Assembly: GCA_963744645.1 (NCBI GenBank)
Contig: CAVUUN010000021.1
Coordinates: forward strand, 2,122 to 66,121
DNA length: 64,000 nt
Source of the DNA: an uncultured Acidobacteriota bacterium
Lineage (GTDB): Bacteria > Acidobacteriota > UBA6911 > RPQK01
Direction: 5' to 3'
The notes under the pieces were generated by a model that saw only the letters and a program-made list of their open reading frames with translations, was not told the DNA's origin and did not search any database. How positions within the stretch are numbered: the stretch's first letter is position 1; every line of letters begins with the position of its first letter. Of this stretch, positions 31,084-32,430 are shown one piece after another. A program made the position numbers and the translations under genes.

Positions 31084-31356
31084 CTACACACACCCGCAAC
31101 TGACTTCCTTTTGGCCCCTCAAAGCCGCGTGGATCATGGCGGCCGCGCAACCCACTCCGCTTTCCACGCTGATGGCCCCGGCCAGGCAGTTGCGCTGGCA
31201 GGCGCCGCATTCCATGCACGCTTGCGGTCGAGCCAACACCGCTTTCCTGCCGTTCATCTCAAAGACCGCGTGTGGACAGACCGCCACGCACATGGCGCAG
31301 CCGCTACAGGCCAGGGGGTTGTAGACGAGCGAATTTTCCTGGTAGGCATTGAACAT
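31084..31356 (-). CDS. hgcB: Mercury methylation ferredoxin HgcB
   Basis: 90 aa MFNAY...CSGCAMCVAVCPH...CMECGACQRNC...GVGCAAAMI...SCGCV: two CX2CX2CX3C motifs, the C(M/I)ECGA signature and C-terminal cysteines. ATG overlaps the hgcA stop (TAATG). Confidence 0.95.
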   Translation of the reverse strand: MFNAYQENSLVYNPLACSGCAMCVAVCPHAVFEMNGRKAVLARPQACMECGACQRNCLAGAISVESGVGCAAAMIHAALRGQKEVSCGCV

Positions 31357-32430
31357 TACAGTCCTCCCATCCAACGGACGATTGCCAGGCCGATCGCGAG
31401 GACCAATCCGGTTCCAAACGTCCAGGCCATCGGCGGAATGTAGGCGAATATTTCCCGGCGAACGCCCCCGGGAGAAGTGAACGTCGTGGCTCCCGTGAAG
31501 TTGAGTGCCAGGTAGGCGGTTGCGGCCGGCATGGCGAGCAGCAGGGCGAGCGCCTGGCCGGCCTGCCGCCACCATTGCCCAATCCGGGTGCTGCCCGACG
31601 CCCCACAAAACGAACGGGACGGCGACGGCGAGACCCAACAGGTATCCTTTCGTGCTGAAGTTTCGCGTGGGCAGCCATGGGATCAGGATCGGAAAAAGGA
31701 TACAACCGGCCAGGACGGATCCCACCGCCGCAAGTGCGAAGAGCCAGCCGCCCATCAGATAAAAGGCGATCGCCGCGACGAGCATCCGCAGGAAGCGATG
31801 CTTGACTTCAACCGGAACCAGGATCAGCCGGTCACGGAGATCGAAGCGAACCTTCCGCATCTCCGGCGTGGCCTGGCGAGTCTCCAGATAAGCGGGCAGA
31901 TCGGAGGCTCGAACCGGCCCGTACTCGACTCGAAATCCGCTGCGCTTCTTCACCTCGTGAGCGGTCACACCCGATGCGCCGAGCTGCGGCAGGATCAGGT
32001 CCCGGTGGACGACAACGTTCTTCAGGCCCGTCTCCCGGACCCGGCGCACGACTTCGTCGGTGCCGAACGTCCCTTTTCCCGCTGCACACCAGACGTTGAT
32101 TCCTCTTGTGTCGAGCACCAGGATGTAGCCGTCGATTCCCTTAAGTGCTGAACGCAAGGCATCGAAGCTGAGCGTGTAATTGGACGTTACAAAGACGGGC
32201 GAATCCGGCGTCGGCTTCCCGAGCGCATAGAGTCCCGGGCTCACGCGATGGTGGTCGCGCCTGTAGCCGATCCGCACCAGGGCGTGGTCGAACCAGTCAG
32301 CCGCGCTCAGGCGTGACGTGGTGCTGGCAATTTTCGGTTTTTGCGTCGCCAGCGGGACGAGCTCGACCATCTTGTTCGGTTCTCGTGTTCCGTTGCCATT
32401 ACAGCAGGTTGCTTCTGGTCTCATATTCAT
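31356..32430 (-). CDS. hgcA: Mercury methylation corrinoid protein HgcA; one extra base near 31578-31580
   Basis: PGLYALGKP, TSNYTLSFD, LDTRGINVWCAAGKGTFG (cap helix), LILPQLGA.GV, YGPVRASDL; TM region and YLALNFTGATTFTS..GVRREI in the shifted frame. Removing 1 nt gives 357 aa. Confidence 0.95.

Follow-up and report, generated by a model that had tools for sequence, protein, structure and literature searches.

The analyzed locus is a predicted two-gene hgcAB operon of orthodox type in the genome of an uncultured member of the Acidobacteriota, and profile and motif searches confirmed it, at the sequence level, as a genuine hgcA-hgcB mercury-methylation pair. The whole stretch of DNA that was analyzed, hereafter called the window, has a length of 64,000 nucleotides. 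As sequenced, its hgcA is interrupted by one extra G at 31578-31580. Taken together, the data are probably best explained by an ordinary, vertically inherited hgcAB operon in which the extra G is an indel error of the assembly. From this most probable origin of the extra base it follows that hgcA is most likely intact in the organism, a putative Hg methylator.

Composition and family assignment of the hgcA-hgcB locus

A 448-amino-acid open reading frame (ORF), which extends from an ATG to a stop codon at 31084-32430 on the minus strand, represents hgcA running via a +1 frameshift into hgcB. Three-frame translation revealed its composite make-up of an HgcA part, an out-of-frame stretch, and a ferredoxin. 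The HgcA part (codons 1-284; 31579-32430, minus strand) contains GINVWCAAGKGTFGT and covers the corrinoid-binding domain, the cap helix, and transmembrane (TM) helices 1-3; residues 1-284 of the intact orthologue P0001 aligned to 32430-31579 with 99.3% identity in a tblastn search. The cap-helix motif NVWCAAGK (amino acids 112-119; 32074-32097, minus strand) is invariant from N112 to K119 among 43 homologues, and its Cys115 is the predicted cobalt ligand, a role taken from published work (PMC7305189). Codons 285-358 of the long ORF encode a hydrophilic stretch rich in Arg, Gly, and Pro with a mean hydropathy of -0.9. The true C-terminus of HgcA (QWWRQAGQALALLLAMPAATAYLALNFTGATTFTSPGG...WMGGL*) was found in the adjacent frame, where hgcA codons 285-357 and the stop codon occupy 31356-31577 (minus strand) and encode TM helices 4-5; here, residues 285-357 of P0001 matched 31577-31359 with 100% identity (tblastn). 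The motif NFTGATTFTS (31473-31502) also lies in this other frame, within an ORF at 31356-31532.

The last 90 codons of the long ORF, which directly follow hgcA, constitute hgcB (31084-31356, minus strand), coding for a ferredoxin with two [4Fe-4S] clusters that is 100% identical to the HgcB of a conspecific contig (L001, see below). Its ATG overlaps the hgcA stop codon in the sequence TAATG and is preceded by the RBS-like sequence GGGAGGA. The first ferredoxin motif, CSGCAMCVAVCP, is located at 31273-31308 and the second, CMECGACQRNC, at 31186-31218, followed by GVGC with Cys70 and a C-terminal SCGCV, so that the cysteines of HgcB are Cys17/20/23/27, Cys47/50/53/57, Cys70, and Cys87/89.

Family assignment relied on NCBIfam equivalog models with cutoffs of 275 bits for HgcA_corrinoid (NF040863) and 99 bits for HgcB_ferredoxin (NF040864). 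As sequenced, the long ORF scored 356.5 bits with HgcA_corrinoid (E=1.3e-106, model positions 2-262) and the short ORF in the adjacent frame 52.9 bits (model positions 274-323). Removal of one G yielded a 357-amino-acid protein with 427.9 bits that covers model positions 2-322 of 325, and the 90-amino-acid ferredoxin matched its model with 102.3 bits. The identification as an hgcA/hgcB pair, which had been proposed in a first-pass annotation of the letters, was thereby borne out with both members above the equivalog cutoffs, and all features named there (the cap helix NVWCAAGK, NFTGATTFTS, both Fe-S motifs, and the terminal cysteines) were recovered.

The same annotation had named a CdhE-like paralogue as one case that would overturn its reading. 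For such a non-methylating paralogue of the CFeSP (CdhD/E) type speaks that Pfam reports PF03599 CdhD only and that the sequence matches in the PDB are CFeSP large (gamma) subunits (2h9a, 4c1n, and 4djd), with which the protein shares a corrinoid-binding domain (E=2e-14); a solved HgcA structure was not found by this PDB sequence search, which returned CFeSP only. The similarity to CFeSP is, however, confined to residues 62-185, and the CFeSP gamma equivalog NF003195 gave 80.5 bits against a cutoff of 306, with a match covering the C-terminal corrinoid domain only, as compared to 428 bits against a cutoff of 275 for HgcA. The CFeSP gamma subunit of the Wood-Ljungdahl pathway has a role in acetyl-CoA synthesis, possesses no TM domain, and is not known to have a cap-helix Cys ligand, whereas the cap-helix Cys, a five-helix TM domain, and an adjoining HgcB are all present here. 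We consider the paralogue reading refuted.

The experimentally characterized Hg-methylation pair is HgcA/HgcB of Pseudodesulfovibrio mercurii (Desulfovibrio desulfuricans) ND132, from which the mechanism proposed here was taken by orthology. HgcA would be a membrane-anchored corrinoid protein with a cytoplasmic corrinoid-binding domain followed by five TM helices, in which the cap-helix Cys would ligate the cobalt. HgcB, with its two [4Fe-4S] clusters, would dock on TM helices 4-5 and reduce the corrinoid, its Cys70 and C-terminal cysteines would handle Hg, and both proteins together would transfer a methyl group to Hg(II). The locus resembles that of ND132 in its two-gene layout, the cap helix N(V/I)WCA(A/G)GK with its Cys, the five-helix TM domain, and an HgcB with two CxxCxxCxxxC motifs, an equivalent of Cys73 (Cys70), and C-terminal cysteines; the HgcB cysteines correspond to ND132 Cys20/23/26/30, 50/53/56/60, and 73 minus 3 (PMC7305189). 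In contrast to ND132, it belongs to another phylum, the second Fe-S motif of HgcB ends in CL instead of CP, the C-terminal cysteines are CGC instead of CC, and hgcA as sequenced is broken by a 1-bp insertion.

The hgcAB operon would be transcribed from its own promoter-like site and translationally coupled through TAATG. A sigma-70-like promoter candidate, TTGACA-18 nt-TATCAT (32444-32473, minus strand), is located directly upstream of the hgcA ATG and shows 11/12 matches to the consensus. Its -35 hexamer, an ATCGATA motif, and the start ATGAATATG are kept in two relatives (L084 and L091), and the remaining spacer differs. The upstream region of hgcA, consisting of a T-run, TTGAC(A/C), ATCGATA, and ATGAATATG, was found at 32431-32480 (minus strand) in the window, at 2340-2402 in L084, and at 7560-7560+60 in L091; it is kept even though the coding regions of these lineages share only about 75-80% identity, and it may represent a promoter plus operator. 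An Rfam search, whose sole match was tRNA-Pro, revealed no riboswitch near hgcAB, and a search of the DNA around the operon yielded no intrinsic terminator.

The extra G in hgcA

The top database match of the repaired HgcA was P0001, a protein of 357 amino acids with 99% identity that is encoded on the ENA contig ERZ25039545:contig_48107 (452 kb); the same intact protein is encoded on a Logan contig from run ERR12037366. Window positions 21349-42432 are collinear with contig_48107 at 98.66% nucleotide identity. Within hgcAB, the window differs from the corresponding stretch of this contig (L001) by four substitutions (A35V, D284N, and two synonymous ones) and a 1-bp insertion. At the site of the frame change the contig reads CGAATTGG-CAATGG and the window CGGATTGGGCAATGG, so that the GGG run at 31578-31580 (minus strand), the +1 frameshift site, contains one G more than in the orthologues, and the 73 codons past the shift and the whole of HgcB are 100% conserved. 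The first-pass annotation had suspected an extra base at these positions, and alignment with the intact orthologue places the frame change exactly there. The extra G is also lacking in the outgroup L084, whose HgcA is 79% identical and which like L001 has GG. By this comparison the inserted G is derived and private to the window, since neither contig_48107 nor the outgroup carries it. Owing to the TAATG stop/start overlap, one inserted base brings the N-terminal frame of hgcA into register with hgcB, and the 74 codons between the shift and hgcB happen to have no stop; the extra G would in this way join hgcA codons 1-284 through 74 out-of-frame codons to hgcB. The exact 448-amino-acid product had no record in the gene-position index, and a scan of metagenome contigs that covered both alleles at the site of the shift (CCCGRATTGG[N]CAATGGTGGCGGCA) gave 0 matches. 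The absence of the window allele elsewhere fits an error and would also fit a rare real allele.

Five TM helices were delineated in P0001 (205-227, 229-252, 258-280, 286-315, and 320-356) by hydropathy and an AF2 model. This model was calculated from 43 close homologues and had a mean pLDDT of 62 with a poorly modelled corrinoid domain, and it was used for the TM helices alone, whose pLDDT was about 75-89. All five helices are encoded in the window, helices 4-5 in another frame, whereas they are continuous in the conspecific P0001. About 24 alignment columns in the part comprising helices 4-5 are invariant, including NFTG..TFTS. As had also been pointed out in the first-pass annotation, a shift at codon 285, if real, would cost hgcA its C-terminal TM helices 4 and 5, which lie past the shift. 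Such a shift would inactivate HgcA because these helices are essential: truncations of the TM domain abolished methylation, and a helical extension of HgcB packs on TM helices 4-5 (PMC7305189).

It is unlikely that the frameshift is real and that the window stems from a strain or population with a recently inactivated hgcA and no Hg methylation. The product, equally doubtful, would then consist of the corrinoid domain and TM helices 1-3 followed by a 74-amino-acid nonsense linker into HgcB, and because an odd number of helices (three) would remain, the fused ferredoxin would be expected to face the wrong side of the membrane. The sequence as given does read in this way, the dependence of methylation on an intact TM domain and on contacts of HgcB with TM helices 4-5 (PMC7305189) would fit a loss of function, a very recent event would agree with how little the window differs from the intact allele, and the patchy distribution of hgcAB has earlier been suggested to result from gene gain and loss (PMC7438021). 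On the other hand, hgcA and hgcB display no further sign of decay, and similar private breaks occur in seven further window genes out of the 32 compared, including that of the housekeeping enzyme phosphoglucose isomerase (PGI). So many breaks are implausible as true pseudogenization in a free-living bacterium, and the sister assemblies have private breaks of their own.

These breaks emerged when 62 kb of window sequence was set against the three contig_48107 stretches L001, L083, and L088: 8 of 32 contig genes tested by tblastn, hgcA included, were frame-broken or fragmented in the window; the contig copy of hgcA is intact. The gene of a 708-amino-acid hypothetical protein without a Pfam family (28153-30282, plus strand), located two genes from hgcB with a 76-amino-acid ORF in between, contains insertions of 1 bp at 28256 and 2 bp at 29242, which divide it into two overlapping ORFs (28247-29485 and 28828-30282). 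Also affected are a DUF6714 gene, two hypothetical genes, and the CBM4_9 and CarboxypepD_reg/TPR genes, the latter two with intact copies on contig_48107. The PGI gene (43389-45130, plus strand) is broken at about 44771 by a 1-bp deletion (contig AAAAGGTT versus window AAAAGTT), which places Pfam positions 1-385 in an ORF at 43389-44933 and positions 375-486 in another frame at 44774-45130, whereas PGI of contig_48107 is intact over positions 1-486. Two further window genes, coding for a DUF4411 and an M78/ImmA protein, are likewise split across frames. Conversely, on contig_48107 the ThiF gene is truncated (L083 4486-5079; model positions 72-205 versus 8-213 in the window) and a TonB-type receptor (L088 11758-15163) is split into 599 and 506 amino acids, as opposed to 1078 amino acids in the window. 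A third assembly of the species, ERZ25039596 (L089), shows two private 1-bp insertions in a gene of 283 amino acids (153-677), for which the window and contig_48107 agree and the window is intact.

Private, gene-breaking indels of 1-2 bp in every assembly, including one in a housekeeping gene, are a signature of consensus errors, and the contig names seem to resemble the output of a long-read assembler. Because of the private frame breaks in seven other window genes and those of the sister assemblies, the extra G in hgcA is most likely an assembly artefact. Noise does not account for all indels: 22 of the 33 indels between the window and L001 are intergenic, a bias expected for real divergence filtered by selection, and many coding indels are concentrated in a few divergent genes and not evenly spread. 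Some indels between window and contig are therefore real divergence. An argument from this intergenic bias that the hgcA indel is real as well was dropped in view of the broken PGI, DUF4411, M78, and other genes and the private breaks of the sister assemblies. The CBM4_9 (57100-58935) and CarboxypepD_reg/TPR (45500-46600) segments, both on the minus strand, show 8-10 single-base indels each and more substitutions relative to contig_48107; they represent hypervariable or recombined DNA or else stretches in which the consensus is poor.

A functional shift, by programmed +1 frameshifting or as a natural HgcA-HgcB fusion akin to HgcAB-like proteins, appears extremely improbable. The shifted frame remains open for 74 codons and meets the hgcB frame exactly to form one 448-amino-acid ORF, and the HgcAB_like model NF043039 gave 258.5 bits for this ORF and 213.3 bits for the repaired HgcA. 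Both values lie below the cutoff of 285 bits, however, and the score of the long ORF derives from its HgcA and HgcB parts and not from the linker, which results from reading the most conserved TM segment in the wrong frame. Moreover, the join with the hgcB frame arises automatically from the TAATG overlap and one inserted base, an open stretch of 74 codons at 63% GC has by estimate a chance of roughly 10%, and the conspecific contig and the outgroup are unshifted. To our knowledge, GGG is not a slippery site. Programmed frameshifting was discarded, as the orthologues are unshifted and a slippery site is lacking. As sequenced, the locus resembles the fused HgcAB-like proteins (NF043039), for example that of Pyrococcus furiosus, in having an HgcA-like part and a ferredoxin in one ORF, but it falls below the family cutoff, its fusion stems from an out-of-frame read, and its intact orthologues are two genes. 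Organisms with true fused HgcAB-like proteins showed no Hg methylation when tested (PMC10087281).

Host, gene neighbourhood, and origin of hgcAB

The gene content of the window supports an assignment to the Acidobacteriota at the phylum level. The Lon protease (53316-55748) has a conspecific copy with 99% identity, and all other named matches of at least 69% identity are labelled "Acidobacteriota bacterium", with Desulfuromonadales at 67-68%. An ADOP ("acidobacterial duplicated orphan permease") gene was detected with 851 bits, and OMP_b-brl_4 receptors, GFO/IDH/MocA genes, and glycoside hydrolases fill the window. The Lon matches and the ADOP permease agree with the Acidobacteriota-like genome that had been recognized in the first-pass annotation, which had also placed the pair in a non-syntenic context between repeat elements and regarded this as compatible with lateral acquisition; these latter views were not upheld by the comparison with relatives.

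The conserved upstream neighbour of hgcAB in the lineage is an M48 peptidase/TerB-domain gene (33012-34355, minus strand), whose product has only four homologues at E<=1e-30 among 5.8 billion proteins. The hgcA-hgcB pair was seen in full directly after the M48/TerB gene in L084, L090, L092, and L093; in L091 this gene is followed by the start of hgcA, where the contig stops, and L094 terminates in a 58-amino-acid ORF where hgcA starts in L084, which is probably the hgcA start. One of these relatives (L090; GCA_964421755.1) shares eleven collinear genes with the window, from the small ORF next to PGI to hgcB, in the order small ORF, PK, hypothetical, GH, hypothetical, DUF2196, ferritin, AP_endonuc_2, M48, and hgcA-hgcB. 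Protein identities in this block are 65-88%, a range that includes HgcA (78-81%) and HgcB (82%), and the gene order of the window and L090 differs only downstream of hgcB. The hgcAB genes have a GC content of 0.61-0.66 and a GC3 of 0.74-0.78, within the range of their neighbours. No mobility gene (integrase or transposase) was found within the 10-kb flanks of hgcAB, and no relative with an empty hgcAB site was found, the pair being at the same site in L084, L090, L092, and L093.

Downstream of hgcB, at 30317-30547 (plus strand), the window contains a convergent, Cys-rich ORF of 76 amino acids (MADCECLPACIFFNDQ...) without a Pfam match. It is 100% conserved in the conspecific contig and absent from L090, which has a CCP_MauG gene after hgcB.

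The claim that the pair lies between repeat elements holds insofar as inverted repeats flank it, but such elements are spread through the spacers of the window and are no sign of lateral origin. A long palindromic element in the M48-hgcA spacer, outside the operon (32569-32766), has a predicted hairpin energy of -158.7 kcal/mol (z = -14.9) and a second copy at 40757-40950, and it is absent from the 135-bp spacer of L084. Downstream of hgcB, a second element (30642-30854) is self-complementary over 213 bp, and the conspecific contig has both elements at the corresponding positions. At least seven palindromes, nearly perfect, 130-320 bp in length, and belonging to several sequence families, occur in the intergenic spacers of the window (24729-24906, 30642-30854, 32569-32766, 40757-40950, 47038-47137, 51876-52005, and 55846-56167), of which 32569-32766 and 40757-40950, as well as 47038-47137 and 55846-56167, form related pairs. 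They may be REP- or MITE-like, and those flanking hgcAB are spacer insertions. A role of the palindromes as island borders was rejected in view of their genome-wide occurrence and the synteny of hgcAB in the relatives, and a laterally acquired genomic island was likewise rejected on the grounds of typical composition, lack of mobility genes, genome-wide palindromes, and a syntenic site.

Short tandem arrays (period 7-10 nt), among them GGAGACAA, CAGAACT, GCTGACCA, and TTCGGGGAGT, were observed in many intergenic spacers (24519-24582, 28016-28071, 41086-41128, 43300-43443, 45126-45369, 55846-56168, and 63936-63970), and some of the larger indels that distinguish the window from the conspecific contig lie within such arrays. 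At 630-5125, tRNA-Pro (630-706) overlaps a direct repeat of about 300 bp (658-958 and 4822-5125, 79% identical). The repeats bracket a 4-kb segment of lower GC content (0.53-0.57) with the frame-split M78/ImmA-like peptidase and DUF4411 genes, which looks like a small element that is integrated at a tRNA gene and is decayed or mis-assembled.

Because of the synteny, the neighbour-like composition, the lack of a mobility gene, and the genome-wide occurrence of the palindromes, a recent lateral acquisition of hgcAB is not supported by the sequence data. The operon would have been inherited vertically in the eleven-gene collinear block since before the split from the relative with about 75-80% protein identity. 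An ancient transfer of hgcAB between phyla is plausible and fits the literature, in which multiple HGT events of hgcA were inferred (McDaniel et al.; PMC7438021). Outside its own species, HgcA is at most 79% identical to any protein in the collection of 5.8 billion proteins, and its nearest named relatives stem from one "Acidobacteria bacterium" MAG (69%) and otherwise from Chloroflexota/Anaerolineales MAGs (63-68%). A search of genome contigs with P0001 yielded, among the matches listed, Chloroflexota, methanogen, and Desulfobacterota MAGs with at most 68% identity and no conspecific genome.

Known carriers and implications

The hgcAB genes are the standard genetic marker of microbial methylmercury production. 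Carriers of this type are already known, as hgcA-positive Acidobacteriota have been published since 2019-2020: such MAGs were attributed to Jones et al. (2019) by a citation in PMC10087281, and seven hgcA-positive Acidobacteria genomes were described by McDaniel et al. (2020; PMC7438021). The window shares with these MAGs the phylum, the marker genes, and the metagenome-only origin. In permafrost Acidobacteria the upstream neighbour is a transcriptional regulator, as opposed to the M48/TerB gene found here, and a metatranscriptome study of permafrost found no transcripts of acidobacterial hgcA (PMC7438021). An intact hgcA copy of the species is itself already public, although unannotated.

The main value of the locus is the caution it suggests regarding frameshifted marker genes in MAGs, for which reads and sister assemblies should be checked before a pseudogene or a fusion is called. 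Surveys relying on the cap-helix motif alone would count the window hgcA, whereas those requiring an intact TM domain would drop it, a discrepancy that most likely has no biological cause but reflects an assembly error of a single base. It is rather improbable that a knockout of hgcA, with a truncated HgcA without TM helices 4-5 fused to HgcB, arose very recently and is polymorphic in natural populations of the species; if this were true, the cap-helix marker of hgcA would overstate strain-level methylation potential. The locus adds a soil or sediment lineage of the Acidobacteriota, whose HgcA shares at most 79% identity with other public sequences, to the hgcAB carriers, and each credible new carrier lineage refines the maps of where the neurotoxin methylmercury can be made.
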